Origin: a virus
Taxonomy: Duplodnaviria > Heunggongvirae > Uroviricota > Caudoviricetes
Virus record (IMG/VR): IMGVR_UViG_2531839666_000019
DNA length: 38,533 nt
Direction: 5' to 3' (one strand)
Notes under the pieces: model-generated
The model's input: the letters and a program-made list of their open reading frames with translations, nothing else
What the model was told of the DNA's origin: nothing
Database searches by the model: none
Translations under genes and position numbers: made by a program
In this document: positions 1-29,985 of the stretch, one piece after another
How the letters are laid out: each line of letters starts with the position of its first letter
Numbering within the stretch: position 1 is the first letter of the stretch

Positions 1-405
1 TCATTGGTTTACTCCCACGTTAATTGCCGCCATTGCGCTTTGAGCAATATCCATGTCTTGTTCAACGCTACCGCCGCTGATGCCAAGCCCGCCAAGCAAT
101 TTTCCGTCACGCCAGAGGGGGAAGCCGCCACCAAAAGTGACGACTTTGCCTTGCATATGGCTTTCGAGCCCGTAAAGCGGCGCGCCGGGTTGCACGGTAT
201 CAGCAAGTTTGTGGGTTGCCGTTTTCATCGCCACGGCGGTCCAGGCTTTTTTCGGTGCCAGTTCACTGCTGACCAACAGGGCATCAGGCATCCGCCAGGT
301 AACACTTTCTGTTCCGTTGGCATCAACAATGCTGATGACAACGGGATGATGCGCCGCGCGATAAATGTACCAATTTCCGTGAGATAAATTACATCGCTGC
401 GGCAT
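1..405 (-). CDS. GlcG/DUF336-family (heme-binding-like) protein; flanking host gene or terminal cargo
   Basis: 134-aa ORF with motif FGGGFPLWRDGKLLGGLGISGGSVEQDMDIAQSA typical of GlcG/DUF336; stop codon is at bases 1-3 and ATG at 405. Confidence 0.55.
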   Translation of the reverse strand: MPQRCNLSHGNWYIYRAAHHPVVISIVDANGTESVTWRMPDALLVSSELAPKKAWTAVAMKTATHKLADTVQPGAPLYGLESHMQGKVVTFGGGFPLWRDGKLLGGLGISGGSVEQDMDIAQSAMAAINVGVNQ

Positions 406-424
406 TTCAATATCTGAAAAAGAA

Positions 425-997
425 TTACAACTTAGCTTGAGTTTGGAGTTCCTCTACAGGGTGATAACGATAAATCGTCGATATACCGATATCGTAAATA
501 ATTGCCAACTGTTTCCTGCTATAGCCATTTTTGATCAGCCTTGCTATTTGTTCATGTTGCTCTTTTGTCAGTTTCGGACGGCGTCCGCCAATACGCCCCT
601 GTGCACGTGCTGCCTCAAGTCCGGCCAGTGTTCGTTCAACTATTAATTCGCGCTCCATTTCCGCTAAAGCCCCCATGACGTGAAAAAAGAAACGTCCCAT
701 GGGTGTTGACGTATCAATGCTGTCTGTAAGACTACGGAAATTAACCCCTTTTCCCCGCAGTTCCTCAATAAGAGTGATAAGGTGTTTCATGCTTCTGCCC
801 AGCCTATCCAGCTTCCAGACAACGAGCGTATCTCCTTCTGATAACGTTCTGAGCAGCTTTTTCAATCCCGGTCGGGCTGACTTTGTTCCGCTGATTTTAT
901 CCTCAAAAATCAGTTCACATCCTGCGCAGTTCAGTGCGTTTCGTTGTAAATCTGTATTCTGGTCATTTGTTGACACACGAATGTAGCCAATTTGCAT
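425..997 (-). CDS. serine recombinase, DNA invertase of the Gin/Pin/Hin/Cin family
   Basis: Protein begins MQIGYIRVSTNDQNTDLQRNAL (catalytic Ser in the YIRVST motif), has a resolvase core and C-terminal HTH, and is very close in pattern to phage Mu Gin; start trimmed from ORF-track 1192 to the ATG at 997. Confidence 0.9.
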   Translation of the reverse strand: MQIGYIRVSTNDQNTDLQRNALNCAGCELIFEDKISGTKSARPGLKKLLRTLSEGDTLVVWKLDRLGRSMKHLITLIEELRGKGVNFRSLTDSIDTSTPMGRFFFHVMGALAEMERELIVERTLAGLEAARAQGRIGGRRPKLTKEQHEQIARLIKNGYSRKQLAIIYDIGISTIYRYHPVEELQTQAKL

Positions 998-1051
998 GAA
1001 AAATATCCTCTTTGTTTTGTTAAAAATACATAGCTGGTATAGGTGGGAGTT

Positions 1052-1079
1052 AAGACGAAAACGTTGGTTTGGGGGAAGG
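1052..1079 (+). other. gix/hix-like crossover site A (variable left half, TT core at 1064-1065, conserved right half GGTTTGGGGGAAGG)
   Basis: Sequence GACGAAAACG-TT-GGTTTGGGGGAAGG matches the AAACC-NN-GGTTT architecture of Gin/Hin sites; the same right half recurs at sites B, C and, inverted, D. Confidence 0.7.
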
Positions 1080-1530
1080 CTCTGCACTACCTGTTGGTGT
1101 GCCTGTTCCGTGGCCGTCAGCCACACCGCCAGCAGGGTGGCTGAAATGTAACGGCGCAGCATTTTCTTCTGAAATGTACCCCAGGCTGGCAAAGGCTTAT
1201 CCGACCAATAAATTACCGGATTTACGGGGCGAATTTATCCGTGGCTGGGATGACGGACGAGGTATTGATGCAGGACGAGAGATACTTTCATTTCAGGAAG
1301 GCACTATCGTCTCCGGTTTTGATGATAATGATACTGGGGATATCAGTTCACTCAGCTCAACACAATACGGATTTGGTGACACTTTAACCTCTAATCAATG
1401 GGGGGCCATAAATGGCAAAAAGTGGATATTTGATGCATCCAGTAAAGGTGCCCAAAAATATGACTGGTGGGCTTATGTATCAGCTCGTCCGCGTAATATT
1501 GCATTTAATTACATCGTAAGAGCGGCATAG
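1066..1530 (+). CDS. silent alternative tail-fibre C-terminal cassette A (no ATG start; expressed only after inversion)
   Basis: Begins GEGSALPVGVPVPWPSATPPAGWLKCNGAAF, the same sequence that follows site D in the expressed tail fibre; ends with conserved RPRNIAFNYIVRAA; ORF-track start is TTG inside the gix site. Confidence 0.75.
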   Translation, partial: GLGEGSALPVGVPVPWPSATPPAGWLKCNGAAFSSEMYPRLAKAYPTNKLPDLRGEFIRGWDDGRGIDAGREILSFQEGTIVSGFDDNDTGDISSLSSTQYGFGDTLTSNQWGAINGKKWIFDASSKGAQKYDWWAYVSARPRNIAFNYIVRAA

Positions 1531-1551
1531 AAACGTTGGTTTGGGGGAAGG
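1524..1551 (+). other. gix/hix-like crossover site B
   Basis: ATAGAAACG-TT-GGTTTGGGGGAAGG, core at 1536-1537, immediately after the stop codon of cassette A. Confidence 0.7.
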
Positions 1552-1969
1552 CTCTGCACTGCCCGTTGGTGTGCCTGTTCCGTGGCCCTCAGCCACACCG
1601 CCAACAGGCTGGCTGAAATGTAACGGTGCAGTATTTTCTGCTGGGAAGTACCCCAAACTGGCACAGGCTTACCCCACCAATAAATTACCGGATTTACGGG
1701 GCGAATTTATTCGTGGCTGGGATGATGGACGTGGAGTGGACAATGGGCGAGCATTATTAAGCAGGCAGGAGGCTACAAATTTTTCTTATTACGGAGGTAA
1801 TTTCGATATTGGGTCTGGTCATTCAATCAATAACTATGACCAAATCGTTGACAACCAACCTGGATTCTCCCGTTTTTCATTTGCAGGTCCTTCGCGAGGC
1901 GATGGGGTTAATTTTGTGACCATTCGTCCTCGTAATATTGCGTTTAATTACATCGTAAGGGCAGCATGA
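1538..1969 (+). CDS. silent alternative tail-fibre C-terminal cassette B
   Basis: Same conserved N-terminal block and C-terminal RPRNIAFNYIVRAA with a different central region; starts in gix site B. Confidence 0.75.
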   Translation, partial: GLGEGSALPVGVPVPWPSATPPTGWLKCNGAVFSAGKYPKLAQAYPTNKLPDLRGEFIRGWDDGRGVDNGRALLSRQEATNFSYYGGNFDIGSGHSINNYDQIVDNQPGFSRFSFAGPSRGDGVNFVTIRPRNIAFNYIVRAA

Positions 1970-1990
1970 AAACGTTGGTTTGGGGGAAGG
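1963..1990 (+). other. gix/hix-like crossover site C
   Basis: CATGAAAACG-TT-GGTTTGGGGGAAGG, core at 1975-1976, immediately after the stop codon of cassette B. Confidence 0.7.
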
Positions 1991-2483
1991 CTCTGCACTA
2001 CCTGTTGGTGTGCCTGTTCCGTGGCCGTCAGCCACACCGCCAGCAGGGTGGCTGAAATGTAACGGCGCAGCATTTTCTTCTGAAATGTACCCCTGGCTGG
2101 CAAAGGCTTATCCGACCAATAAATTACCGGATTTACGGGGCGAATTTATCCGTGGCTGGGATGACGGACGGGGAATTGATTCAGGGCGTTTCTTGCTTAA
2201 TGCACAACCACATTCGGTTATGGATCATACTCACTATATGGAGTTATGGACCGGTGAAGGGCTTGCTGCAAACAGCACCCGTGCAGGAACAAACCCTGGT
2301 ATACTGGCTACATACGGTGATGGCGGGATTGTTAAAACAGATGAGTCAGGTGTAAAAGTTCCATCTTCACTACGTGCTATTGGCACTCGTGGTGTTTATA
2401 GATTAGGTGCCAACGGAGGGAATACAGGAACGGAAAACCGCCCCCGTAATATTGCGTTTAACTATATTGTAAGGGCTACTTAA
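1977..2483 (+). CDS. silent alternative tail-fibre C-terminal cassette C
   Basis: Same conserved block (about 125 bp identical to the expressed copy) and C-terminal motif; stop overlaps the tfa start (TAATG at 2481-2485). Confidence 0.75.
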   Translation, partial: GLGEGSALPVGVPVPWPSATPPAGWLKCNGAAFSSEMYPWLAKAYPTNKLPDLRGEFIRGWDDGRGIDSGRFLLNAQPHSVMDHTHYMELWTGEGLAANSTRAGTNPGILATYGDGGIVKTDESGVKVPSSLRAIGTRGVYRLGANGGNTGTENRPRNIAFNYIVRAT

Positions 2484-3100
2484 TGAATAATGCTGCTGCA
2501 GTACTTGATCAGAATGGTATCGCTATAACTGCAGGCGATATTACCGTTTATAACTACGATGCTGAAAACCGTGAATATCTCTCTGCCACTGTTGAATATC
2601 TCGCTTATGGTGTTGGAATTCCGGCTCACTCATGCATTGACGCGCCACCAGAAAAACGCCCCGGCTTCGCTGTCTGTCGTGATACCGACCAGAACATCTG
2701 GAAATATGTTCCAGACCACAGAGGCGAAACGGTTTACAGCACAGAGAATGGTAACGCTGTGCAAATCACACAGCCGGGAGATTACCCTTCAGATACGACG
2801 GTGAAACAGCCAGCTACCATCTATGATGTCTGGGATGGTGAGACCTGGGTGACAGATACGAGACGACAGCACGCAGCAGAACTGGAAGCTGCCGGAGCGC
2901 ATCGTCAGCAACTTGAGGAACAGGCAATGGCATCTGTTGAGCTTATTAATCTCAAACTACGAGCCGGACGCCGATTGACGCCCCAGGAGACGGAAAAACT
3001 AAACGCCGTGCTTGATTTCATAGATGCGCTTAATGCGACTGACATCAGCACTGCACCGGATATCAACTGGCCGGAAATGCCTCTGGCAGCAGCCAGTTGA
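2483..3100 (+). CDS. tail fibre assembly protein (Tfa/U-like chaperone)
   Basis: 205-aa protein with the typical Tfa N-terminal region; lies directly downstream of cassette C and converges on the expressed tail fibre. Confidence 0.75.
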   Translation: MNNAAAVLDQNGIAITAGDITVYNYDAENREYLSATVEYLAYGVGIPAHSCIDAPPEKRPGFAVCRDTDQNIWKYVPDHRGETVYSTENGNAVQITQPGDYPSDTTVKQPATIYDVWDGETWVTDTRRQHAAELEAAGAHRQQLEEQAMASVELINLKLRAGRRLTPQETEKLNAVLDFIDALNATDISTAPDINWPEMPLAAAS

Positions 3101-3106
3101 GTATAA

Positions 3107-4075
3107 TTAAGCCGCCCTCACGATATAGTTAAATGCAATATTGCGGGGGCGAGTTTCACTACCACCAGTGTTACCAATACTTCCTCGTGAATGAAGCGTT
3201 GGTGATGGAATCAAACTCCCTCCTGTATTTGCAGCATCAAGTCCCCGGCCTTGTGAATATGTTTTTTTGAAAATTGTGGCCAACTCCCATTCATCCTTTG
3301 TGTCATACCCATCGTTAGCTACAACAATATGGCGGTGTTTTTCCAGCATCCCAGTTTGAAAGCTCAATAAAGCACGTCCTGCATCAATCCCTCGCCCGTC
3401 ATCCCAGCCACGGATAAATTCGCCCCGTAAATCCGGTAATTTATTGGTCGGATAAGCCTTTGCCAGCCAGGGGTACATTTCAGAAGAAAATGCTGCGCCG
3501 TTACATTTCAGCCACCCTGCTGGTGGTGTTGCTGAGGGCCACGGAACGGGCACACCAACGGGCAGCGCAGAGCCTTCCCCCAAACCAAGGTTTTTGACAA
3601 ACAGCGCAGGATCAGGAATATCTGCGCCGTTCTGGTCTTTAGCCAGCTTTTCCGCCAGCTTGTTCAGTACCGTAGTCGCAAAGTTTGGATCATTACCGAG
3701 AGCGTCAGCCAGCTCTTTAAGCGTATCCAGTGTCTCAGGGGCGCTGCCTGCAAGCGCCGCAAGTGCTTTGGCCACAAACTCCGTCGTCGCCAGCTTTTTG
3801 CTGTTATCGCCATTTGCAGGTGTAGGTGCTGTTGGTGTGCCGGTGAATGCCGGACTGGCTTTCGGTGCATACTGGGCATGCGGGTCTGCTGCCGCGATGT
3901 GTTTCGCAAGGTCAGCCCCGCCTTTTTCAACCTGTTGCTTCAGGTACAGCGTGCGGCTGGCCAGTTGTTTACCCTGACGGTTAGAAATTCCGTCAGGCCC
4001 GCCCAGAACGGGGTCAGAGACCTCAATCTGGTAGATGCCGTCTTCCCACTGTGGGGTTTCAGGTAGATTTGCCAT
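3107..4075 (-). CDS. tail fibre protein (constant N-terminal part plus currently expressed variable C-terminal cassette D, 3107-3586)
   Basis: 322-aa protein; N-terminal tail-fibre region followed after site D by the GEGSALPVGV block and the RPRNIAFNYIVRAA terminus. Confidence 0.85.
   Translation of the reverse strand: MANLPETPQWEDGIYQIEVSDPVLGGPDGISNRQGKQLASRTLYLKQQVEKGGADLAKHIAAADPHAQYAPKASPAFTGTPTAPTPANGDNSKKLATTEFVAKALAALAGSAPETLDTLKELADALGNDPNFATTVLNKLAEKLAKDQNGADIPDPALFVKNLGLGEGSALPVGVPVPWPSATPPAGWLKCNGAAFSSEMYPWLAKAYPTNKLPDLRGEFIRGWDDGRGIDAGRALLSFQTGMLEKHRHIVVANDGYDTKDEWELATIFKKTYSQGRGLDAANTGGSLIPSPTLHSRGSIGNTGGSETRPRNIAFNYIVRAA
3573..3600 (-). other. gix/hix-like crossover site D, inverted relative to A-C, inside the expressed tail-fibre gene
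   Basis: Plus strand reads CCTTCCCCCAAACC-AA-GGTTTTTGACAA, a near-palindrome resembling hixL; core at 3587-3588; encodes FVKNLGLGEG of the tail fibre. Confidence 0.75.
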
Positions 4076-6161: not shown

Positions 6162-7037
6162 TTAAATTACGAAAACCTTGACGATAAGTTCTCCGTCTTT
6201 AGAAACTCTCTTCCCCTCAAGATCAGATTTCAGCCCCTCAGAATTAGTAATAAGCTGGTTCGGATCGTAGATGACACACCAGAGATTTTTGCAATCAGAG
6301 TGCCGACGATAATGCTCTATATCGATAATAAGTTCATCGCCGATTTTCTTTGCATGAGAACGATCACGAACAATTTTGGTTTCCAGTACTAATTTATGCG
6401 CAGGTAACAAAAAATCCATTCGAGTACTTGAACCAGCGTAACTTGGAGTAAACTCTTCTGGGCGGATGTCCTGAACCCATGGTCTGAGCAATGCATGGAG
6501 AAGGTCTTGCACGTCATATTCATTGCTAAAAGATAATGACTGGCTTCCTTTTCGCCTATGAGTAAGTGGATGCATTGCTCGCTGTAAGCCTTTGACCAGC
6601 CTTTCCAGTAAGTTCTCAACTTTTTCTGGCATTACTGGCTGTTGATAAGTAATTATGGTCTCTGGGTAATCCATATTGTGTGACGGGATGTGGCCTTCAG
6701 GCAACACTCGACCAAAACGATAATATCTAAGTCCATTCTCTTGTAACACAGCTTCAATTCTGTCTCGTTTTTCCTTCCATTCTGCATATTCGGGAGTACC
6801 TTCTTTTGGAGGTAAATCCATAAACTCCTCAATTACTCCGCCCAGAACTGCCAGACTATCTGTATCTGGATCTTGCCCTGCAAGAAATAACCAGTCTTTC
6901 CATTTTGTACTATGAGATCCTGCCGGAGGGTTTCCTGGTGCTCCCGAAGTAAGAAATAACGTATCTAAAGCTGCATGAGAGCCTGAGTTAGCAATGACAT
7001 CGCCAACTACTTTACATAAGGATCTTGATAACCGCAT
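6162..7037 (-). CDS. inserted accessory gene in the baseplate block; candidate PD-(D/E)xK-fold nuclease-like protein
   Basis: 291-aa ORF, visibly AT-richer than flanking genes, flanked by 71-bp and 81-bp spacers; C-terminal region contains D-x11-E-x-K (MDFLLPAHKLVLETKIV). Confidence 0.5.
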   Translation of the reverse strand: MRLSRSLCKVVGDVIANSGSHAALDTLFLTSGAPGNPPAGSHSTKWKDWLFLAGQDPDTDSLAVLGGVIEEFMDLPPKEGTPEYAEWKEKRDRIEAVLQENGLRYYRFGRVLPEGHIPSHNMDYPETIITYQQPVMPEKVENLLERLVKGLQRAMHPLTHRRKGSQSLSFSNEYDVQDLLHALLRPWVQDIRPEEFTPSYAGSSTRMDFLLPAHKLVLETKIVRDRSHAKKIGDELIIDIEHYRRHSDCKNLWCVIYDPNQLITNSEGLKSDLEGKRVSKDGELIVKVFVI

Positions 7038-8782: not shown

Positions 8783-8985
8783 GGGGCAATATCCTCTTCT
8801 GTACGGGCATCTTCAGCCTCAATAACCGGGATCAGTAACAACAACCCGGAGGGCAGCACTGGCGTAATGGCCACGTGCGGATTGGCTGCAATAATCCGGG
8901 GATAGCCCAGCGGGTCACCGTAGTACTGCCATGCCAGCGAATCCCAGCGCTCTCCGTCACGGGTAATATGTTCAAGAAACATCAC
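8770..8985 (-). CDS. small tail protein (tail protein X-like)
   Basis: 71-aa ORF translationally coupled to neighbours. Confidence 0.45.
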   Translation of the reverse strand: MMFLEHITRDGERWDSLAWQYYGDPLGYPRIIAANPHVAITPVLPSGLLLLIPVIEAEDARTEEDIAPWLR

Positions 8986-9866
8986 ACACTCCTCGTCAGT
9001 ATTCTGGCGGCCATTGCACTTAATCCCGGAGACATGCGGTTGAATGCTGTGCCGGCGGCGTTAAGCTGCCCGGAAACGGTATCCAGAGCACCTGCAATAT
9101 TTCTTTTGTCCACACCACTCAGCGCCGACTGCGCCTGCTGTACATACGTGGCTGCCTCACTGGCTGTTCTGGCCAGACTGATGGCATCGGGCATGGATTC
9201 AGAGAGTACATTAAACGCCGGAATACTTTTCCCCAGAGCGCCGGATATATTACCCAGTCCGCTCATCAGTCCCGGCACACGGGTCAGCGCGACAACGGGG
9301 TTACCCTTCATTTTCTGCGCCACCCGAACGGCACTGATGGTGGTCTGGAGTACAGACTGCGCCTGTTTCGCATAGTTGACGCCGTTACGGACGAACTGCG
9401 CCACCCCGGAAGGCGATGGAACAGCACCAGATATGGCCCCGGCACCGGGAACCTGCCTGCGTATTGCCGGCGGTTGCAGAGGATTTTTCGGGTCACCGGT
9501 GTATTCCCGGAGAGACACGGTGGCACTGACAGCCAGCACGTTACCGGTGCTGTCTGTCTGCTCGCTGGTTGCGGTCACATCGGTAATCACGAACCAGCCG
9601 CGATAGTCACCGTTGCCGAAGACCAGCGCCAGTGCCTGATGGGCCTTCATGGCAGTTCGCACTCTCGCCAGCTCCACGTCGGGCACACAATAATGCTGAT
9701 GGAAGACCAGGCTTATCTGGATTTCGTCCAGCCTGTCGCCGACGAACTGCAGGCCGGGTTTACCCTCGATGCGGGCATGCTCCGCATAATCGACGCCAAA
9801 CGTGGCCTCGAAGCCGTCCCAGTAGGTAATCAGTTCAAACTCAATATCACCCAGTACGGCAAACAT
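8982..9866 (-). CDS. tail protein, Mu gp43-like (DNA circularisation protein N-terminal family)
   Basis: 294-aa ORF directly downstream of the tape measure gene. Confidence 0.6.
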   Translation of the reverse strand: MFAVLGDIEFELITYWDGFEATFGVDYAEHARIEGKPGLQFVGDRLDEIQISLVFHQHYCVPDVELARVRTAMKAHQALALVFGNGDYRGWFVITDVTATSEQTDSTGNVLAVSATVSLREYTGDPKNPLQPPAIRRQVPGAGAISGAVPSPSGVAQFVRNGVNYAKQAQSVLQTTISAVRVAQKMKGNPVVALTRVPGLMSGLGNISGALGKSIPAFNVLSESMPDAISLARTASEAATYVQQAQSALSGVDKRNIAGALDTVSGQLNAAGTAFNRMSPGLSAMAARILTRSV

Positions 9867-12332
9867 CAGCTGTACTCCTTACGTTGTTTCTGAGCCAGCA
9901 GACGCTCCAGCATTTTTTCCAGCTCATGCAGGCTCATATTCAGGGCACCAGCCAGCCCGGCAGGCGCTGCGGTTTCCTTACCATTGAGGAAAAACTGAGG
10001 ATTAAAGCTGACCTGGATACCGCCAGACGCTCCACCGCCGGTTGCAGTTGCGCCACGGCCTGAATATCCGGCAGCCATGATTTCCGGCGACGGGATACGG
10101 GGAACATCCGGTGTCATTTCAGCGGCCAGGCGCTGCCCGGCCAGTGCAGCAAGCGGAGTGGTCCGTTGCAGGCCAATGGCGGCACCCTGCGCGATATTGT
10201 CACCAAAGCCTATAAACACGCGACTCGGTGAATGGATGCCCAGCTTTTCGCTGAACCAGTCACTGATGCTGTCACCCATTCCGGTTATGCTGGTTTTCAG
10301 TGACGCCCATTTGTTTCTGATGCCATTTATCAGCCCGTCAATAAGATGACCACCGAAGTCGGTGAATTTCGCCGGCAAATCAACGCCGAGATATTTCAGC
10401 GCAGCCGCAAAGGCTTTATAAAGCAGACCTGCCGGAGACCAGTTAACCAGCAGTTTACCAATTCCCGCGATGCCGCCGTTAAAGGCTTCCTGAATGTCAG
10501 CCCAGCGCTGTTTAAACCAGCTACTGACAGCGCCCCAGTTGCGGTAGATAAGGTAAGCTGCTGCCGCGACGGCGGTGATAACGAGACCGATGGGATTCAT
10601 CAGCAGCGCCCGGCCAATCCAGAGAACGGCACGCCCGGCGCTCATAATTCCGCGAACCAGCCCCCCTGAGAGCACCCCCCCACGTCGTTCTGGTTCCTCT
10701 GGCGACGGCACCAAAGCCTGTCACCAGCCAGCGGAGTTTACCGCCTTCCCCCAGTGCGAGCATCAGACGAAGCCAGTTGGCCCGAAGTAAAACAGCATTT
10801 TTCCAGACGCTTACAAAGGGGGAAATAAGGAGATTCAGCCCAAACTTGAGACCGATAGTGGCCATCCTGAAAGCGAGTAATGCGCCCACAACCTTTATGG
10901 TGCTGCTGACGAGCTGCGGATTTGCCGCTATCCATTTGCCGACGCTGTCCATTAAAGGAATAAATGTTTCACCCAACTGGAGCAAAGCCGGACGCAAGGA
11001 TTGCCCGATGCTGATAGCAGAATCATTAAAGCCGATCTGCATTCTGCGCCAGCGACCTTCAAGCGTATCATTCTGCTTTGCAGCATCCTTATCCAGGGTA
11101 GACATTGCAGCCGGAGCATTCATTTCCTGCTTACTGGAAAGGTATTTATCCCAGCCCTGTCGCATTGACAGTAAATGGTTGACAGTCTGAATATCGGTAA
11201 AGACCTCAGCCAGACCAAATGACTCCATGAGTTTCTGCTGACCTTCCTGATCGCCTCTTGCTCCTGCAGCTTTCCATTGCTGCAAAAACGCTTTGCCTTT
11301 ACTGTCGATAAAACGGTTGGCAATCATCAGTGAAGCTTCGTACTGCGAAAAACCCTGAGCGACGTAATTCTGCATTGACCCCTGGTAATCCACCCCGGCT
11401 TTAGCATATTTCTGGATGGTATCTCCGCGGCCCATTGCTGCCAGCCAGTTGGACATATTGGTGACCGCTTCCTCTGCAGAGCCACTACCTTTACCGACCT
11501 CCAGACTGGCAACAATCTGGGTAATCGCATCTTTTCCATAAATACCACGAGCAGCGAAGGCTTTCGCCATACCGGGTAATGCTTTTGCCATATCCTTCAG
11601 CTCAAATGACCCAAGTTTGGCTCCTGTTGCCGCAATGCCAAACGCCTGTTCAAGTTCTTTCGCATCAGTGATTCTGAGTGCATCGCTGAAGGCATAAGTC
11701 ATTTTGGCAAGGTCGGTCATATCGGCTTTGGTTGCTGTAGCGGTCTTTCCAAGCATCTCTGCAAACGTTGCTGCCCGTTCGGGGGCCATACCATCAGCAA
11801 CTAATTGTCCGACTCCCCCTAACAGAGACTCCTGCAGTTGGTTAACCTTCAGCGAGGCCTGTCTGATAGCCAGGCCAATTGCACGTTCCTGTTTTGCATC
11901 CAGGTCTCCTGTGACACTGATATCCCGCAACTGTGATTCAAACGAGGCATATTGTTTAACCGAGGCCATGACCGGTGCGCCCAGCGTTCTGCCAATAGCA
12001 TAGGTTTCTGCACCCTGACCATAGAGCGCCAGGCGGTTAGCCTTCAACGCATCACCGGTGGCTGATACTGCTGACAGACGGCGCTGCTGACGTTCAATTT
12101 GCTCCATGGTGCGGCTTACCCGCAGCAACTCGCTGTTGAGATGCTGCATCCGGGAAGAACCCAGTTGACCATAACGTTCTGTTGCCCGGGTTAAGGCATT
12201 CTGGCGTTCCTGCAGACGGCGGGAGGTATCACCAAGGGAATCAAGGGCGCGTCGGGTGCCACTGACGGCTGAGCGGAAGCTGCTCCCGACAATGCCGCCA
12301 ATAATGACGCCGACTGAAAATTCACTGGCCAC
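9866..12332 (-). CDS. tail tape measure protein, reading frame broken within 10661-10681 (two ORFs 10521-12332 and 9866-10714)
   Basis: 603-aa plus 282-aa overlapping ORFs; coiled-coil-rich N part and hydrophobic segment LVRGIMSAGRAVLWIGRALLMNPIGLVITAVAAAAYLIY; removing one G from the G7 run (or the adjacent G6 run) joins the frames. Confidence 0.8.
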
Positions 12333-12424: not shown

Positions 12425-12848
12425 TTACTGATTGTCGCCGAACTCGCTTTTGATTTGCTCTTCAGCCTGCTCCAGCCACATCTCCAGATCGTCAGTATCG
12501 AGGGCATCAATCTCCCCCGGCTGAAACCTGAACCATCTCGCCAGCAGGCCCTGCGCCTGCATCAGTGTTTTTGTCGCTCTTGCCCAGCCCAGTGATTTTC
12601 TGAAATCGTTTCTGCAGCTCCATATAGTCGGCAAGATCCATGTTATCGAGGTCTTCCGGGAGGATACCGGTGCTACGGGCAATCAGTGGTTCGTCCCAGT
12701 CTGCCGGGTCTTTGTTGATTTTGCGCACCTGCTTCAGGTCTTTTACTGTCAGGCGTTTCAGTTCAATCTGTTCAATTCTGGTACCTGCAGCAGTGGTGAA
12801 AGGATAAGACAGCGTAAAAGTATCGGACTGGGTCTGTGACATGATCAT
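12425..12848 (-). CDS. tail assembly chaperone (113-aa product 12507-12848) with a +1-frame 27-codon extension to 12425
   Basis: Position between tube and tape measure genes; second frame has an acidic C-terminus EIDALDTDDLEMWLEQAEEQIKSEFGDNQ; frames meet at a G5 run (plus-strand C5 at 12514-12518). Confidence 0.6.
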
Positions 12849-13223: not shown

Positions 13224-13745
13224 TCAGCCCCCGATATTGATCCGATAGTCAGTCAGTTGATCAACGCCACCGACGCGGAAGATGTTGGCCAGATAGTCCA
13301 GTTGCAGCAACTCTTCACCATCCAGTACCTGTCTGATATACGTGCAGGTGAAGCTACTGGAGAACTCGGCGTTCTCGTGCTGTTTAAACGTCCCCAGCGG
13401 GTTCTTCTTGAACATAATTGTCAGGAAGGTGACCAGCGGGATTTCGTCGATCAGCCCCTGCGAGCTGTAGCGCTGGACGCTGGAGCGACACTGCAGCGCC
13501 AGCGACTTGTACGGGTTCGCGGCAGACAGCATCGCATCGCGGTAAAAGCTGTTCCATTTGATTTCGCCTTCCAGTTTGTCAAAACCAGCCGGGAGTTCCA
13601 CCTTACCCACCATCCCCAGTGCCTTGTGTTCCTGCATAATCATGGAGACATCGGGGAGTTTAACCTCCTCAGCCCGTCCCAGCAGGTTAGTACCATCCAG
13701 ATAGATGTTGGCATTCGTGATTCGGTTTATCTCAATCTTTGACAT
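13224..13745 (-). CDS. tail tube protein (Mu gp40-like)
   Basis: 173-aa ORF immediately downstream of the sheath gene, typical size. Confidence 0.75.
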   Translation of the reverse strand: MSKIEINRITNANIYLDGTNLLGRAEEVKLPDVSMIMQEHKALGMVGKVELPAGFDKLEGEIKWNSFYRDAMLSAANPYKSLALQCRSSVQRYSSQGLIDEIPLVTFLTIMFKKNPLGTFKQHENAEFSSSFTCTYIRQVLDGEELLQLDYLANIFRVGGVDQLTDYRINIGG

Positions 13746-15172
13746 CAGTTGCCCCCTTTCAGGGTTAACAGGTATTCCGAGGTGATCTCAGTCTCAAACG
13801 TCAGTCGCTCCAGCGGCGGTGGTGGCGTATATTTGTAGCTCAGCAACAGGTGCCCGGCGGCCAGCTCCGTTTCCGGATTGCGGGCCGGATCAAACCAGCA
13901 ACGGAAGCCCAGTACCGCGCCATCACCAGTCATTTTGCGACCGTAGGCGTTGACCGACTCCGTCAGTGCATCAATCAGCGCCTGAGTAATCGGCATGTCG
14001 ATGTACTGCTGGCTGAAGTAACGAATGGACTCATTGATCACATCACCGGTGCGGCGAACGTTCTCAAAGTTACGCATATGGGTGACCGTTGGCCATGCTG
14101 CCGTCCGGTTACCCCACAGACGAAGGCCGCTGCCGTAACTGCTGAATACCGTGGTGATCCCCTGTTCGTTAAGCAGGTTCACCTCGCTCTGCGGATCGTC
14201 AATCATTGCCGACAGCTGGCGCTCCACGCCGGTGATCCCCAGAATTTCCTGATTTGAGGATGACCACCAGTACCCTTTGTCCAGGTCGACTTTGGCACGC
14301 AGGCCCGCCGCACGCTGGCTCAGTGGCTCCAGACGTTCCGTGTTCGTCACCGGGTCATATACCTTCACATGCGGGTAGCACAGGCGGACACGGTCAGAGC
14401 TGGTATTAAAGTTAATGGTGCCTTCCGGGCCTCGTCCCGCCAGAGCCTGCGCAAAAGTGGTACCAACCGGCGCATCAATATAGGTTACTGCTCCCAGTTT
14501 CTCAGCCATGGCGATAAGCTCAACCGAGACGCTGTTCTGGGTGCAGAATACCGGAGCAATCAGGATTTTGGCGAAGTAGCCAAACAGGTTAAAACTGTCG
14601 TTAAGCAGCTTCATGCCGGTACGGTTGCCTGCAGCGTTAACGGTACCGATGATATCAGCCGGGGTGACTTTGGTCGGATCAGCATAGTTATAGCTGGCCT
14701 TCACCGTTGCATCTGCAGCAATGCTTTTACCCAGGTTAGTAATCACCCCGGTCTGTGCATCAAGCGAGTAGTCCTGACCTTCAACATAAGGCTGACCGTC
14801 GCTGTCCGGTTTCAGTACCAGCTGCGCGACCACCGGATTAGCCAGCCGGGCTCTGCCTGTCGCCTTGTCGAACGACACATTCTCACTGACCACAGCGGTT
14901 TTATGCACAGACGGATCGAGTACGTTAATGACCAGAACGGTGCCTGCACCATGGTCATAAATCGCATCCAGCGCCTGTGGAATGGTAAAGCCGGTGAACT
15001 GGCTGCCAAATGCCGCAGCGTCTTTCTCAGACAGGCACTGTACCAGCGTATTGACATCCCCCATTGGTGCGGTACCAATCAGGCCAATAACGGCAGATTT
15101 CACCGTTTTAACCGGGCGGGCACCGTTTTCCACTTCAATGGTTTCCGGACCATGCAGATAGTTAGCTGACAT
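13745..15172 (-). CDS. contractile tail sheath protein (Mu gp39-like)
   Basis: 475-aa ORF, N-terminus MSANYLHGPETIEVENGARPVKTVKSAVIGLIGTAP typical of sheath proteins. Confidence 0.85.
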   Translation of the reverse strand: MSANYLHGPETIEVENGARPVKTVKSAVIGLIGTAPMGDVNTLVQCLSEKDAAAFGSQFTGFTIPQALDAIYDHGAGTVLVINVLDPSVHKTAVVSENVSFDKATGRARLANPVVAQLVLKPDSDGQPYVEGQDYSLDAQTGVITNLGKSIAADATVKASYNYADPTKVTPADIIGTVNAAGNRTGMKLLNDSFNLFGYFAKILIAPVFCTQNSVSVELIAMAEKLGAVTYIDAPVGTTFAQALAGRGPEGTINFNTSSDRVRLCYPHVKVYDPVTNTERLEPLSQRAAGLRAKVDLDKGYWWSSSNQEILGITGVERQLSAMIDDPQSEVNLLNEQGITTVFSSYGSGLRLWGNRTAAWPTVTHMRNFENVRRTGDVINESIRYFSQQYIDMPITQALIDALTESVNAYGRKMTGDGAVLGFRCWFDPARNPETELAAGHLLLSYKYTPPPPLERLTFETEITSEYLLTLKGGN

Positions 15173-20233: not shown

Positions 20234-21727
20234 TCAGCCGTTGTCACGCTCATGCAGACGCCCCCAGATATTTGCCACAAAGAGAATGCGGGCCAGCCGC
20301 TCCTGCAGATCGTCCGTGTTCATCTGAGGGTAGAGCTCCGCCAGTTCGCCCAGCAGCTCAGACGGGTTAACCCCGTTTTCGACCCGCCTGAACAGAGGTG
20401 CCAGGACGGGTTCCAGCGTGCCATTTAACACACCTCCGTTCATCAGAATGTCCAGCGCGTCGTCAAGCTGCTGTTGTGCATCATGATCGGCGCTTATCGC
20501 CTCGGCAAACTCCGCAGGCACTGCCCCGTCCGCAACCGGTGCATCAGAGAGGTCAATATCCCCCTCCTGCAGCTGGTACTCCCGCATGAAGTACTGCGGG
20601 GTCAGGCGTAGTCCCGCGCGGGTGAGTTTTTCGTCGCGGGTGGCACGGGTGTCATCAATGGCCTCCTGTTCCCACATGGCCCAGACCGGACACGGCACAT
20701 CGCCGAAGTTCAGGGTGACCACCGTTCTGATGACCTGATTCACTGCCGCCTGAATGATGTCCGCATCCGCATCGCGGATATCAGCCGTCACCTCCAGCCC
20801 GGCCTGTGCAGAGGCCTTGTTACTGTTCGCTTCCGTGGTCTGATTCTGACCGAGTAATGCAATGGAGATCTCACTGCGTGACAGCGTGATCAGCTCGCGG
20901 AATACCTCGCTGCTGTCCGCCTTGCCATCCGCGGCTTTGAGTTCAATGCTGCTGTCATCGGGGATGGCGGCCACAGCGTCCTCCACCATCTGCTCCATGG
21001 AGTCCAGCAGTTTTTCAATCTCTGCATCATTTGCACCCCTCGGGTGCTTACCGATCACCCACGGGGAGCCAAACTTTTCGGCAAAGCGGAGCCAGAATTT
21101 CATCCCGCCTTTCTTGAAGGCGACCGGCCAGAAGCACATGGACAGGTCCGGGAAACCGTAAGGATTGTCATACGAGGCATCCTGTGCCGGCACCACGAAT
21201 TTTGACGGTGACAGCAGCTCACCCTCCACACCCGCATCACGCGCCCGGAAGCGCAGGCAGTTGTCCGTATCAAACTGAAACCACTCAGGCGGTTTGCCGA
21301 CAATATCCGTCACCGCCCACGCCCTGACCGAACGGCCCCACATGATTTCACAGGGCTGATACCCGTAGAGCACGGCATCGCTCATCTCACCGATGATGCG
21401 GGACAGATCCAGATCGTCGAGCATGTCGCGGATGAAACGGAAGACCCGGGCAGAAGCGTGACCGCGCTCCAGTCCACGCTCCAGCGATTTGAGCGCTGCT
21501 TTACGTCTGCGGATACAGCCTCCGACCAGCGGGTCGGTGCGCAGTTCGCGGTAGATACGGATATCCCGTCCCTGAGCCTTGAGAATGGGATCAGGATTGG
21601 GCAGATACATGCCCAGTCCGTAAAAGTCGATCGCGCGGCTGCGGGAGGCAATCTGCGCGGTCAGTGATTTCTGAGGCTCAGAAAAAGCAACAAATTCATC
21701 GGGTGAAACCCAGATACCCCTCGCCAT
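20234..21727 (-). CDS. portal protein (Mu gp29-like, DUF935-like)
   Basis: 497-aa ORF directly after the terminase large subunit, typical size. Confidence 0.8.
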   Translation of the reverse strand: MARGIWVSPDEFVAFSEPQKSLTAQIASRSRAIDFYGLGMYLPNPDPILKAQGRDIRIYRELRTDPLVGGCIRRRKAALKSLERGLERGHASARVFRFIRDMLDDLDLSRIIGEMSDAVLYGYQPCEIMWGRSVRAWAVTDIVGKPPEWFQFDTDNCLRFRARDAGVEGELLSPSKFVVPAQDASYDNPYGFPDLSMCFWPVAFKKGGMKFWLRFAEKFGSPWVIGKHPRGANDAEIEKLLDSMEQMVEDAVAAIPDDSSIELKAADGKADSSEVFRELITLSRSEISIALLGQNQTTEANSNKASAQAGLEVTADIRDADADIIQAAVNQVIRTVVTLNFGDVPCPVWAMWEQEAIDDTRATRDEKLTRAGLRLTPQYFMREYQLQEGDIDLSDAPVADGAVPAEFAEAISADHDAQQQLDDALDILMNGGVLNGTLEPVLAPLFRRVENGVNPSELLGELAELYPQMNTDDLQERLARILFVANIWGRLHERDNG

Positions 21728-23321
21728 CAGAATCCCTCCAGCATACGGGCCGCCTGACGACGACGGCGTGAGCTTGCCTTCACCGGCCCTTTGTTAATTT
21801 CACGGCTGGCGAAATACGCCAGCGCCAGTGCGATGGCTGAATCCCCGTGGCGTTTACCACCGTCAGCCTTTGCTTTTGAGCGTTGCTCCGGTACGCGGGG
21901 GACACCGTTCACCACCTGAACGGCCCGCAGGTCATCCAGTGTGTCTTCATCCTTTGGTAAGTCCACCAGGTTACCGTCTTCCAGTGCAGCTTTGACCGGA
22001 GGCATATGCTCCCTGTACCAGCCTTCGGTTGGCATCACCTGCTGAATCCGGCTGGAGCCGTAGCGCTGCATGGCGTATTCAGCCAGATAGGCACCATTAC
22101 CACGGGCATCAAACGCTGCACCCAGCAGACCGGGCAGGCCATCCATCAGATACCAGGTGATTTGCTCCTGCTGTCTGAACGGCACGTTACGCAGCTCCAG
22201 TACGAATGGCACGCGTCGTACCAGGTTCTTCTCCTGCAGCAGGGGATAGTCCACCGACAAATCACCGCTACGGCCAAAGTCGCGCCCCAGGAAAGAGCGG
22301 GCATCAGTGGGGAGTGCCTCCAGCAATGGTTTCAGATACTCATCAAGCCAGTCCTGCGTCTCGCGGAAGCGAACCTCATCAGACAGCAGTTCATAACCTT
22401 CCTTGCAGGTCAGACGCAATACCGGCGTATCAGCGGACATGCGGGACTCTATCAGGGCACGGGACAGCCAGGCACCGCCACCGTTGGCCGGAATACAGTC
22501 AAGCTCTTCGGATGCGCCGGCACCGTAGAATTTGTACACCGATGCCATCCAGGCCTGCTCGGAGGCCTCCGACCATTCCTTCCCGGTGCGCAGACAGACG
22601 CGCCGGAACAGCCCCTCAGATACGGCTTCCCGGAAAGTGATGCGATGTATGCTGCCTCCCTGACGTCCGGCACGGATATCCCCGATAAGCGTATTGAACG
22701 GATTGTCGTCACCGTTATGGGTGGAGATAACGTGTACCTTCCCCCCCAGATAAGCATCGCCAGCGCCGCTTTCAGCAGTTCGTCCAGTTGCTCATGGAAC
22801 GCCGCTTCGTCGATAACAATAATACCCTGACGGCCACGCAGGTTAGACGGGCGGCTGGAGAGCGCAACAATACGAAAGCCGGAGTCAGGAAATTTGATGG
22901 TGTAAGTCCTGATGTGTTTGTCGTCGTCGTCCTCTTCCCAGAATCCTTCTTCAATTTCACTGGCCGCATAGTTGAATGCCCGTGCCCACATCGCACACGC
23001 CTGAATGTATTCGACGGTCATGTCTTGGTTATAAGCGATGTAATACACATTCATCCCGCCTGCTGGCGCAGAAGAGGCGGCGGTCAGTACGTTATCGGAT
23101 GCCTCAGCCCATGTAATACCGGTACGACGGCTCTTTTCTATCACCTTAAGCGGAGAGGTGTCTGCCACCCAGCGCTGCTGGTAAGGCAACAGAACGGGAG
23201 GGGCATCCAGCGCCGAGGTATCAGGCAAAACGGGAGCAAGGTTATTCCTCCCGTCCATGGGACTCATCCCTTCGGGGCCGCCGCCAGCGGCGTTTAAAAT
23301 CACTCCGGATGATTTTGTCAT
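21727..23321 (-). CDS. terminase large subunit (Mu gp28-like), frame broken at a G7 run (plus-strand C7 at 22741-22747)
   Basis: Two overlapping ORFs (22452-23321 and 21727-22548); adding one G to the run gives a continuous protein of about 531 aa through WGGKVHVISTHNGDDNPFNTLIGDIRAGRQGGSIHRITF. Confidence 0.8.
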
Positions 23322-27153: not shown

Positions 27154-27561
27154 TCAGAAAACAATCCTTATCGAACAAACACTGCACGTAGGTAATGCAT
27201 CCAGTAAATCGCGTTAATAGAAATCATGTATCTCAAAACTTCACTCTGAACTCTGACAGTGAAAGAACGACCAGCCCGGTACCCGAACTCCGGGCTGGTC
27301 ATCGCCCCACAGGAATGCACTGTGAGCCGACCGAGGTTCAGTCAGTCTCGCGAGACCAGACTAGCCTGCCATATTTTTATAATTATAAAAGGGTTACAGA
27401 TTATGAAAATGCAGACATTCCCCATCGCTCCATGGATTGGTTGTAAACGCCGCCATGCCAGACATATTCTGGCCGATGTTTCCTAGCACGCACGAATATG
27501 AGGCAACTGACGAGAATAAATGATGCGTCAGAATGAACCGTCGACACCGTGATTTCAGGTT

Positions 27562-28232: not shown

Positions 28233-28269
28233 TTGTTGGTCAAGTAATAGAGCTCTACATGGGGCGGTC
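28233..28269. repeat. 37-bp direct repeat, left copy flanking IS1
   Basis: TTGTTGGTCAAGTAATAGAGCTCTACATGGGGCGGTC, identical to 29038-29074. Confidence 0.9.
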
Positions 28270-28284
28270 GGTAATGACTCCAAC

Positions 28285-28788
28285 TTATTGATAGTGTTTT
28301 ATGTTCAGATAATGCCCGATGACTTTGTCATGCAGCTCCACCGATTTTGAGAACGACAGCGACTTCCGTCCCAGCCGTGCCAGGTGCTGCCTCAGATTCA
28401 GGTTATGCCGCTCAATTCGCTGCGTATATCGCTTGCTGATTACGTGCAGCTTTCCCTTCAGGCGGGATTCATACAGCGGCCAGCCATCCGTCATCCATAT
28501 CACCACGTCAAAGGGTGACAGCAGGCTCATAAGACGCCCCAGCGTCGCCATAGTGCGTTCACCGAATACGTGCGCAACAACCGTCTTCCGGAGCCTGTCA
28601 TACGCGTAAAACAGCCAGCGCTGGCGCGATTTAGCCCCGACATAGCCCCACTGTTCGTCCATTTCAGCGCAGACAATCACATCACTGCCCGGCTGTATGC
28701 GCGAAGTTACCGACTGCGGCCTGAGTTTTTTAAGTGACGTAAAGTCGTGTTGAGGCCAACGCCCATAATGCGGGCTGTTGCCCGGCAT
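28285..28788 (-). CDS. insB: IS1 InsB (transposase reading frame, normally expressed as InsAB by frameshift)
   Basis: 167-aa ORF matching IS1 InsB. Confidence 0.9.
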
Positions 28789-28982
28789 CCAACGCCATTC
28801 ATGGCCATATCAATGATTTTCTGGTACGTACCGGGTTGAGAAGCGGTGTAAGTGAACTGCAGTTGCCATGTTTTACGGCAGTGAGAGCAGAGATAGCGCT
28901 GATGTCCGGCGGTGCTTTTGCCGTTACGCACCACCCCGTCAGTAGCTGAACAGGAGGGACAGCTGATAGAAACAGAAGCCAC
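28707..28982 (-). CDS. insA: IS1 InsA
   Basis: 91-aa protein [40 protein letters not shown]. Confidence 0.95.
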
Positions 28983-29010
28983 TGGAGCACCTCAAAAACA
29001 CCATCATACA

Positions 29011-29985
29011 CTAAATCAGTAAGTTGGCAGCATCACCTTGTTGGTCAAGTAATAGAGCTCTACATGGGGCGGTCAAAACACGGGCATAACGACCATCGGG
29101 GTTTATGTTGATGTAACAAGTTTTCCCTTTAACACCATAAGATTCAGGTATTATTGCCTGTGTAGACACCGTGAATTTAAGGGTATGCCAGCCCGATTTT
29201 TGCTTGTAGCTTGAAACCGAATGGAAATCATCTGAGTACTTATTTAACCCTGGAAACATGCTGCGTAATGCTGGGATGGAATCTTCTATTATTTTGTCGT
29301 TGGTTTTAATGTTAAAAACGCTGGTTTCAGTAGATGCTACTGCTTTAGCATTTCCCCATTTACCAGCGAACACAATCATTCCCACGAAAAATATTGCGAC
29401 AAGAACTAACGCTCCCCCCAACACTACTACATGAGGCTTCCGGCTTCTGGTTGGTACAGTCGCGACTGATTTTGCCCCGCTGTCCGATGGAGGTGATAGA
29501 GTTTTACTCTCATCACGAATATTCAGCAGATCATCAAAATAACCAAACACAGCCTGCAACTGCTCTTTGTCCAGGCCTTTAAGATGGGTTGTACCGAAAT
29601 GCTTCAGACAGTATCTGTCACGGTCAAGACGATACCTAGGGTCAGTAAGCACCATTATTTTGCTGACCAGAAGATTACAGTCCTTCATATTCTGGATCTG
29701 TTGTGCATATCTCTGGAGGATCTCAACCGCACCATGATAATCAGCCGCAGTCATTTCATTAACTGTTTTGGTATTAAGTTTCGTGTGGATCGTCATCCAT
29801 AGTTCGCGCTTACTTTCCCCCAGATCAACCAATTCATCCATCAATCTGTGTAAATCGCGTTTTTGCAGCAACGAAATTGGTTGCTGGGCAGAGGGAAGTA
29901 TGTCAGCAGAATAGTTATGAATGGTAACATCACCGCTGACAACGTTACCCACATCTCCGTTAACTGTTTGCTTCTCTTTACTCAT
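29011..29985 (-). CDS. single-pass membrane protein co-transcribed with the repressor; 3' end replaced by IS1 sequence
   Basis: 324-aa ORF; N-terminal GDVGNVVSGDVTIHNY motif, TM helix VVVLGGALVLVAIFFVGMIVFAG; last 8 codons and stop lie inside IS1; without IS1 the frame would continue leftward to a stop near 28194. Confidence 0.6.
   Translation of the reverse strand: MSKEKQTVNGDVGNVVSGDVTIHNYSADILPSAQQPISLLQKRDLHRLMDELVDLGESKRELWMTIHTKLNTKTVNEMTAADYHGAVEILQRYAQQIQNMKDCNLLVSKIMVLTDPRYRLDRDRYCLKHFGTTHLKGLDKEQLQAVFGYFDDLLNIRDESKTLSPPSDSGAKSVATVPTRSRKPHVVVLGGALVLVAIFFVGMIVFAGKWGNAKAVASTETSVFNIKTNDKIIEDSIPALRSMFPGLNKYSDDFHSVSSYKQKSGWHTLKFTVSTQAIIPESYGVKGKTCYININPDGRYARVLTAPCRALLLDQQGDAANLLI
29038..29074. 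repeat. 37-bp direct repeat, right copy flanking IS1
   Basis: Identical to 28233-28269. Confidence 0.9.

Follow-up and report, generated by a model that had tools for sequence, protein, structure and literature searches.

The DNA analysed here (hereafter the window) is a stretch of 38,533 nucleotides from the IMG/VR record IMGVR_UViG_2531839666_000019, and the element that hosts the gene under study is a BcepMu-like transposable prophage lying in pduO of Escherichia coli O128:H2 strain 9.0111. On the minus strand, the tail genes are arranged in the order sheath, tube, Phage_TAC_7 chaperone, tape measure, gpU-like protein, gpX, gpD and baseplate V (Table 1). The tape measure gene comes after the chaperone pair and before the baseplate and tail-completion genes, and its identity is fixed by the Phage_TAC_7 chaperone directly upstream; at its other end, base 9866 is common to the end of its stop codon and the start of the gpU-like gene. 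As written, the gene is divided between two ORFs of 603 and 282 aa, which are in different frames and, according to the ORF listing, overlap by 194 nt. The 603-aa ORF runs into an Arg-rich, out-of-frame tail of about 52 residues after residue 549 and stops at 10521, and residues 1-11 of the 282-aa ORF are likewise an out-of-frame read-in. The original prediction had taken the two ORFs for a single tape measure gene of about 820 aa, and this was borne out by near-identical prophages, which carry a single gene of 2466 nt encoding 821 aa. An IS1 element is inserted in the prophage, and the sequence on the far side of IS1 was seen in the sibling assembly GCA_005045715.1 (RRFJ01), which agrees with the window in its pduO insertion and in its IS1 junction. 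A scan of the whole window against Rfam gave no hits.

Table 1. Positions of the tape measure locus, its frame break and the other features of the window referred to in the text
Feature	Position	Strand	Remarks
P2 gpU-like tail protein	8982..9866	-	PF06995 on the homologous gene
Tail tape measure gene	9866..12332	-	Net +1 frame break as written; one 2466-nt ORF (821 aa) in relatives
Downstream ORF, 282 aa	9866..10714	-	From residue 12 ('GGVLSGG...') corresponds to tape measure residues 551-821
Upstream ORF, 603 aa, GTG start	10521..12332	-	Residues 1-549 correspond to the tape measure protein of relatives
Neighbouring G6 run	10661..10666		Coding strand (10666-10661); same in window as in relatives; G5 in dataset ERR10936125
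Lesion	10675..10686		Plus strand C7-A-C-G-T-C-G; C8-A-G-T-G in JNEC-KY202; A-C6-A-G-T-G in ATCC 43896 (CACACCCCCCAGTG)
Tail assembly chaperone (Phage_TAC_7, P2 gpE-like)	12507..12848	-	E = 1.5e-22; directly upstream of the tape measure gene
Second frame break, terminase large subunit	22741..22747		C7 in window, C8 in relatives; gene split into 289-aa and 273-aa ORFs

Both pieces matched the same family profiles. In phrog_28, positions 106-651 were matched by the 603-aa piece (E = 3.7e-79) and positions 638-770 by the 282-aa piece (E = 9e-36), and in phrog_5690 the corresponding positions were 122-549 and 640-893. PF10145 (PhageMin_Tail) matched the 603-aa N-terminal piece with 57 bits (E = 2.9e-15), the cut-off being 33.2 bits, and PF10145 and PHROG 28 are the profiles that mark a tape measure protein. 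The tape measure genes of BcepMu-like and P2-like phages (BcepMu gp44, phiE255 gp18 and P2 gpT) occupy the same position, from the Phage_TAC_7 chaperone to gpU/gpX/gpD, and their products have PF10145 in the N-terminal half, as found here. BcepMu gp44 and phiE255 gp18, of about 843 and 867 aa as estimated from the aligned DNA spans, show 41% and 42.5% identity to the 821-aa protein, continuous over residues 1-820, and protein identity in the tape measure ORFs rises to 92-93% for Klebsiella phage KP12 and Escherichia phage Phi06_2974 B. These results indicate that the locus is one tail tape measure gene of 821 aa, of the BcepMu gp44 / P2 gpT type. All of the homologues named are single ORFs, whereas the window gene is written in two frames.

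The two-frame layout could be taken at face value, either as two functional proteins or as one protein produced by a programmed +1 frameshift or by transcriptional slippage on the G7 run at the break. This run is located where the ORFs overlap, and slippage on it is possible in principle; programmed frameshifting is normal in the tail chaperone gene pair, which adjoins the locus. Nevertheless, neither the layout nor a slippery site is conserved: the close relatives and the cultured phages KP12, BcepMu and phiE255 have one continuous ORF, and the run itself is missing in relatives, the sequence being GGTGGTG in KP12 and GGGTGGTG in Phi06_2974 B. The Arg-rich, out-of-frame end of the upstream ORF also argues against this reading, and we regard both forms of it as extremely improbable. 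As a possible case of a naturally split gene we considered PhiKM, the only phage record with two such features, and rejected it, the gene there being split by a sequencing gap.

The exact edit and its distribution among relatives

On the coding strand, the window reads AAC-G-AC-G-T-G7 where the prophage of E. coli JNEC-KY202 reads AAC-ACT-G8, the G7 run being positions 10681-10675 of the window (C7 of the plus strand, 10675-10681). The lesion therefore consists of two extra G's, 1 and 4 nt upstream of the run, and of G7 replacing G8, with a net change of +1. At this site the window reads GACGTGGGGGGG, whereas ACTGGGGGGGGTG would correspond to an intact gene and ACTGGGGGGGTG to a real -1 pseudogene. 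The break had been predicted to lie in the adjacent G7 and G6 runs; it is indeed at G7, but the two extra G's lie ahead of that run and G6 is not involved. Removal of one G from either run was expected to join the ORFs, and both removals did give an uninterrupted ORF of 821 aa, with 2 residue differences from the protein of the relatives (L550T and G551W) when the G was taken from G7 and 6 when it was taken from G6. The joined length is that of the related tape measure proteins used for comparison (821 aa in L001, L002, L003 and L005). A plain miscount of a homopolymer was considered and rejected, as the alignment contains a cluster of three edits and the G7 run is partly made by the change itself. 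Mutation by template switching or at a quasi-palindrome was also rejected, because no direct or inverted copy of the novel sequence longer than 6 nt was found within about 280 nt.

The prophage of JNEC-KY202 is the closest relative and shares the pduO insertion site with the window. Over about 34 kb, with the invertible tail-fibre segment left out, the two differ by 2 isolated SNPs and by indels at three sites, at all of which the window has a contracted homopolymer (the tape measure cluster, C8 to C7 in the terminase gene and an intergenic T6 to T5). The JNEC-KY202 prophage contains only two homopolymers of at least 8 bases, located exactly at the two frame-break sites, and the only two G/C runs of at least 7 in the window are again the sites of the tape measure and terminase breaks. 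This coincidence of the long G/C runs of the window with both breaks is more than chance. In all of the 25 E. coli complete genomes listed, the 2467 nt of the window gene matched over 2466 nt, annotated as one 'phage tail tape measure protein'. When the comparison was narrowed to a 101-nt stretch around the break, it spanned 100 nt in 25 of the 25 complete genomes holding the stretch, and none of them matched at 100%. One long continuous ORF (821 aa) was present in every relative and absent from the window as written, and we attribute its absence there to sequence error.

For the exact 603-aa product, EII23942.1 of E. coli 9.0111 (O128:H2; 2011 JCVI draft) is the sole record, and no contig of the collection encodes it. 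The exact window allele was found neither in viral_contigs, where the intact G6-T-G allele also gave no match, nor in genome_contigs, where the search pattern matched both the window and the intact alleles. Strain 9.0111 is a JCVI draft with the WGS accession AEZZ (PMC3359367); as to the sequencing platform of AEZZ / 9.0111, the papers found give strain, serotype and centre only.

If the window were literally correct, a complex deletion-insertion converting ACTG to GACGT beside the G run would have inactivated the gene of a decaying prophage. Frame breaks in both essential late genes and the presence of IS1 would agree with such decay, and G-rich tracts are real mutation hot spots; in four other datasets, indels occur in the two G runs of the tape measure gene. 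Simple -1 alleles were seen in other datasets only (L011 to L014), and SRR35987464, ERR499297, ERR10936125 and SRR28250663 carry such alleles. The allele of the window, however, is absent from the 25 complete genomes, from viral_contigs and genome_contigs and from exact-product look-ups elsewhere, and two insertions of the same base 2 nt apart before a homopolymer have no simple mechanism and no nearby template. Moreover, the ratio of indels to SNPs against the closest relative is 3:2, and the usual ratio in real divergence is far below this value. Since the pattern also corresponds to a textbook 454 error, as described below, we consider a literal mutation quite unlikely.

Flow-space pattern of the lesion

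Both sequences were turned into flowgrams using the flow order TACG (PMC3045300). The flowgrams of the window and JNEC-KY202 were equal in length and in phase (55 flows for a short test sequence and 127 flows for a longer one), and they differed at three successive flows of the same nucleotide only, from (8,0,0) to (7,1,1) on the plus strand and from (0,0,8) to (1,1,7) on the coding strand. Among 1545 variants made by the same class of edit, just 2 had this property; this stricter count replaced an earlier null model, which was too permissive in that 56% of its variants were 'in phase'. The flow-space hypothesis was framed post hoc, with the data already seen, and this weighs against an artefact.

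A carry-forward error of the same form has been published, in which GACTGGG becomes GACGTGGG (Huse et al. 2007, PMC2323236). In accordance with such errors, the inserted base at the lesion is the nucleotide of the run and stands ahead of it with few bases between, and the change affects nothing but successive flows of one nucleotide, the rest staying in phase. The resemblance to 454 carry-forward and incomplete-extension (CAFIE) errors (PMC2323236) extends to the insertion of run nucleotides in their own flow slots and to the undercalling of the run by one, whereas the present case is unlike them in having two successive spurious flows instead of one and in the error being kept in the assembly consensus, the platform here being a presumed one. 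In such an event, a fraction of the template strands would be ahead of phase, so that the long G run would be incorporated one and two cycles early. As a result, each of the two G flows before the main one would yield a spurious G (AAC-[G]-AC-[G]-T), and the signal of the main G flow would drop from 8 to 7; the net gain of 1 nt would make one ORF appear as two overlapping ORFs.

The Logan assembly of SRR063742, which we take to be an early SRA run, showed 0 mismatches to the window over 20.9 kb and three further 1-nt homopolymer deletions. These extra deletions are a flow-type error profile; the end of the contig is about 36 nt short of the lesion.

From these results, we consider it likely that the frame break arose at a G8 homopolymer in flow-based (454) pyrosequencing, as an error of base calling or of the consensus. 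The original prediction had left the choice between homopolymer sequencing error and a decaying prophage; error is favoured, because the allele is on record for a single 2011 draft only, carries the 454 signature in flow space and belongs to a set of three indel differences that are all homopolymer contractions, and decay is the less favoured of the two. The intact gene of the relatives, the agreement of the only two 8-base homopolymers of JNEC-KY202 with both break sites, the restriction of the 603-aa product to one JCVI draft, the error profile of the SRR063742 assembly and new bases lacking a nearby direct or inverted template all point to an artefact. Against this, two spurious calls and one undercall at a single site of a consensus would be unusual even for 454. 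The coding strand probably reads AAC ACT GGG GGG GGT GCT in reality, as it does in JNEC-KY202. We infer 454 reads as the source of the data, G8 as the true run and, therefore, a functional tape measure protein.

Possible slippage at the G8 tracts and the terminase break

Real slippage at this tract nevertheless appears to occur, which counts against a purely artefactual origin. The plain ACT-G7 (-1) allele is present in SRR35987464 and ERR499297, where a near-identical prophage carries ORFs of 562 aa and 259 aa; the two datasets have SNP 4552A in common and are 2 SNPs from the window, and SRR35987464 has no other indel in 17 kb. A slipped-strand contraction from G8 to G7 could therefore also be real in 9.0111, in a decaying prophage, with the extra G's as noise; the written sequence would still be wrong. 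That the window too calls G7, that its terminase gene is broken at the other G8 tract and that the IS1 insertion shows real lesions in the prophage would all be in line with this. However, SNP 4552A is absent from the window and from the intact JNEC-KY202, which indicates that the G7 of SRR35987464 and ERR499297 arose on a separate branch, and the length at the site is intact in 25 of 25 complete genomes. The flow values also favour the longer run, as calls of (1,1,7) would require the total signal to reach 7.5 or more, which fits a true G8 and not a true G7, for which conservation of signal would predict (1,1,6). Slipped-strand pseudogenes of prophages resemble the present case in having the break at a G/C tract of an essential late gene, and simple -1 alleles are found at both tracts elsewhere, but they differ from intact relatives by the gain or loss of one unit, unlike the window allele, which is a cluster of three edits with a net change of +1 and not a simple change of run length. 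We judge a real contraction in 9.0111 unlikely.

The C7 allele of the terminase gene is seen again in other assemblies, an NCTC PacBio one and a Logan one that is otherwise clean, and this recurrence also speaks against an artefact. It suggests that the prophage lineage may already be defective and under relaxed selection. A related explanation is that, in this family of BcepMu-like prophages, the G8 tracts of the terminase and tape measure genes are slippage-prone and recurrently, perhaps reversibly, switch off virion production in lineages of E. coli, the window representing one off state blurred by sequencing noise. Hints of this are the location of both breaks at the only two 8-base runs of the relative and the simple -1 alleles that several unrelated datasets have at the terminase run and at the two G runs within the tape measure gene; we hold such a switch to be very unlikely.

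Because the break looks like a 454 error, the tape measure gene is most likely intact and ordinary. In annotation, the two ORFs should either be joined into a single tape measure gene or carry a frameshift flag, and they are no evidence that the gene is split, that the site serves recoding or that the prophage is dead. The TACG flowgram comparison may be reusable for other old drafts, in which differences that collapse onto successive flows of one nucleotide would flag artefacts of the 454 era. If the break were real, it would mean no more than that this prophage is unable to make tails, as is often the case with prophages.

Two reading frames of one tape measure gene

The two minus-strand ORFs at the tape measure locus (603 and 282 aa) lie in different frames and overlap by 194 nt, and the original prediction that removal of one G from either of two nearby G runs would join them held for both runs. 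Each deletion gives an ORF of 821 aa, which differs from the relatives at 2 residues when the G is taken from the G7 run and at 6 when it is taken from G6. The 603-aa and 282-aa pieces match consecutive positions of phrog_28 (106-651, then 638-770) and phrog_5690 (122-549, then 640-893), and the N-terminal piece matches PF10145. The expectation of a single protein of about 820 aa also agrees with the relatives, because ATCC 43896, 2014C-3075, Klebsiella phage KP12 and E. coli JNEC-KY202 all show a stop-free translation of 821 aa. Taken together, the ORFs, the run positions, the one-G joins and the consecutive profile matches indicate that the split-gene observation is correct; as tape measure genes go, this one is ordinary.

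Among the matches listed, 25 complete E. coli genomes matched the whole 2467 nt with 98.8-99.9% identity, and all 25 covered 2466 nt of their record and were annotated as a single 'phage tail tape measure protein'. At the break, a stretch of 101 nt in the window corresponds to a 100-nt span in all 25 complete genomes holding it, none of which matched the window at 100%. The cultured phages BcepMu (gp44) and phiE255 (gp18) gave one unbroken alignment across residues 1-820. Recoding, or two functional proteins, is highly improbable; no relative conserves a programmed frameshift or a natural division into two proteins, and the G run is wholly absent in KP12 (GGTGGTG) and Phi06_2974 B (GGGTGGTG). 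Two tape measure features are annotated in only one phage record, PhiKM, where a sequencing gap causes the split.

The surrounding prophage

The window is a BcepMu-like transposable prophage, with Mor, GemA/gp16, Gam, a MuB-like ATPase and a MuA-like transposase in its early-gene arm, and lysis genes, Mu-type head genes and a P2-type contractile tail in the other. Because the window starts in the 3′ part of pduO, the propanediol operon is interrupted by the prophage; this interruption is shared with JNEC-KY202, the closest relative overall, at an identical pduO insertion site. The resolvase/invertase gene adjoins the pduO part, and beyond it the tail-fibre region, which contains several direct and inverted cassettes resembling one another and varies among relatives, looks like an invertible host-range segment.

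By-hand reading of the window placed the extension ORF ('...FQPGEIDALDTDDLEMWLEQAEEQIKSEFGDNQ'), which comes after the tail chaperone gene, at +1 (equivalently -2) with respect to the chaperone frame, unlike E/E' of P2, for which -1 is usual; CCGGGGGAG is found in the overlap immediately ahead of the chaperone stop. The gene with the restriction endonuclease domain lies between those for baseplate V and W/gp25 and appears to be accessory cargo of the prophage; ATCC 43896 has an IS66-family element at this locus. An Rfam scan of the whole window returned no family matches.

Features of the window, with tail genes listed in gene order
Feature	Position	Strand	Remarks
Complete IS1	28270-29037		768 bp; flanks 28233-28269, 29038-29074
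Intergenic T5	27373-27378		T6 in JNEC-KY202; plain contraction
Terminase large subunit, first ORF	22452-23321	minus	289 aa
Terminase C7	22741-22747		C8 in relatives; plain contraction; splits the gene
Terminase large subunit, second ORF	21727-22548	minus	273 aa
Sheath	13745-15172	minus	first in tail gene order
Tube	13224-13745	minus	after sheath
Phage_TAC_7 chaperone	12507-12848	minus	PF10109, E=1.5e-22; after tube
Chaperone extension ORF	12425-12682	minus	
Tape measure, 603-aa ORF	10521-12332	minus	
Coding-strand G7	10681-10675	minus	
Coding-strand G6	10666-10661	minus	
Tape measure, 282-aa ORF	9866-10714	minus	
gpU-like protein	8982-9866	minus	after tape measure ORFs
gpX, gpD, baseplate V		minus	follow gpU-like protein in that order
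DpnII/MboI-type restriction endonuclease domain	6162-7037	minus	291 aa; PF18742, E=4e-47
Tail-fibre region	~1057-3594		
Gin-type resolvase/invertase	425-1192		
HbpS-like 3′ part of pduO	1-405		

The lesion and indels in other assemblies

Over the whole 2467 nt, differences between the window and ATCC 43896 were confined to a cluster at 10675-10686. Compared with JNEC-KY202 outside the invertible tail-fibre segment, the window has isolated SNPs at two positions, 9654 and 31913, and indels at three sites, which include the terminase C7 and the T5, a third homopolymer contraction at a site that is T6 in all relatives except the assembly of SRR063742 (T5). At the tape measure site, the coding strand reads AGAAC-ACT-GGGGGGGG-TGCTC in JNEC-KY202 versus AGAAC-G-AC-G-T-GGGGGGG-TGCTC in the window, so that the window gains two G's, located 1 and 4 nt before the run, and loses one within it, a net change of +1. 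In the 37.7-kb prophage of JNEC-KY202, just two homopolymers reach 8 bases or more, and they coincide exactly with the break sites in the tape measure and terminase genes. A template-switch origin was rejected, as no template lies nearby.

Simple -1 indels were found in both of the same tape measure runs (equivalent to window 10661-10681) in other datasets (L011-L014). In SRR35987464 and ERR499297, G8 is shortened to G7 (ACT-G7), which gives ORFs of 562 and 259 aa, the second run is shortened from G6 to G5 in ERR10936125, and an NCTC PacBio assembly labelled Klebsiella oxytoca reads G5-T-G (first run G6 to G5). The G7 of SRR35987464 may well be real because no further indel was present in 17 kb.

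The picture for the terminase break, as real or as sequencing error, is mixed. Among 611 complete E. coli genomes, no match to the window there reached 100% (best identity, 99.1%), and nearly all listed matches spanned 112 nt against the 111-nt query. The exact 289-aa product is also encoded by GCA_900448755.1, a PacBio assembly from NCTC, and by the Logan assemblies of SRR063742 and SRR28250663; the SNP background differs in two of the three. C7 on another SNP background is found in the PacBio assembly and in a Logan assembly that is otherwise clean.

The IS1, with InsA and InsB intact, truncates a hypothetical gene from 328 to 324 aa. A direct duplication of 37 bp lies on its two sides, whereas the usual IS1 target duplication is about 9 bp. 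Its right junction is also found in the independent assembly GCA_005045715.1 and the element is real; the otherwise identical SRR063742 contig has an empty site.

From the simple indels and the recurring terminase C7, the tracts look like real hot spots, and the tape measure tract is a recurrent indel site, through real mutation or sequencing. The same indels and the IS1 also count in favor of a real G8-to-G7 frameshift beneath added sequencing noise. However, SNP 4552A is common to SRR35987464 and ERR499297 and absent from the window and the intact JNEC-KY202, and therefore their G7 arose on another branch; we consider such a frameshift in the window unlikely.

The lesion in flow space

The window and JNEC-KY202 sequences were converted to flowgrams, successive nucleotide flows in the 454 order TACG (PMC3045300). 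The two were of the same length, in phase throughout, and differed solely in three successive flows of one nucleotide: C flows changed from (8,0,0) to (7,1,1) on the plus strand, and G flows from (0,0,8) to (1,1,7) on the coding strand. When all 1545 distinct variants with this kind of edit were enumerated (the run shortened from 8 to 7 and two single bases inserted within 8 nt), 45 altered flows of the run nucleotide alone, and only 2, one of them the window, altered the run flow and two adjacent cycles. Error of this kind has been described for 454 data (Huse et al. 2007). A few percent of strands ahead of phase would give an early signal multiplied by the run length, and the main flow would be lowered by the same loss. 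We infer that (1,1,7) calls require 7.5 or more in total signal, as expected if the true run is G8 but not if it is G7.

By exact look-up, the 603-aa product was found only as EII23942.1, 'phage tail tape measure protein, TP901 family [Escherichia coli 9.0111]', and the same strain is the source of EII24492.1 (the 289-aa terminase fragment) and EII24331.1 (the IS1-truncated 324-aa protein). Strain 9.0111 is an O128:H2 Stx2 strain with a draft, AEZZ, from the J. Craig Venter Institute (PMC3359367); its sequencing platform was not found in print. The Logan assembly of the apparently early SRA run SRR063742 had no mismatches with the window across 20.9 kb, shares its terminase C7 and T5, and carries three additional single-base homopolymer deletions, a flow-type error profile; its contig ends at about window 10722, by coordinates some 36 nt short of the lesion. 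All of this is consistent with 454 data for 9.0111 or a sibling strain, without amounting to proof.

Of the two origins first proposed, sequencing error or prophage decay, error is thus favored: the break is probably an artefact of pyrosequencing, with the gene itself intact. It is quite unlikely that the sequence as written is a real complex mutation. A true pseudogene in strain 9.0111 is possible but less likely than an artefact. The useful outputs are a corrected annotation of the tape measure gene and the flow-space test.
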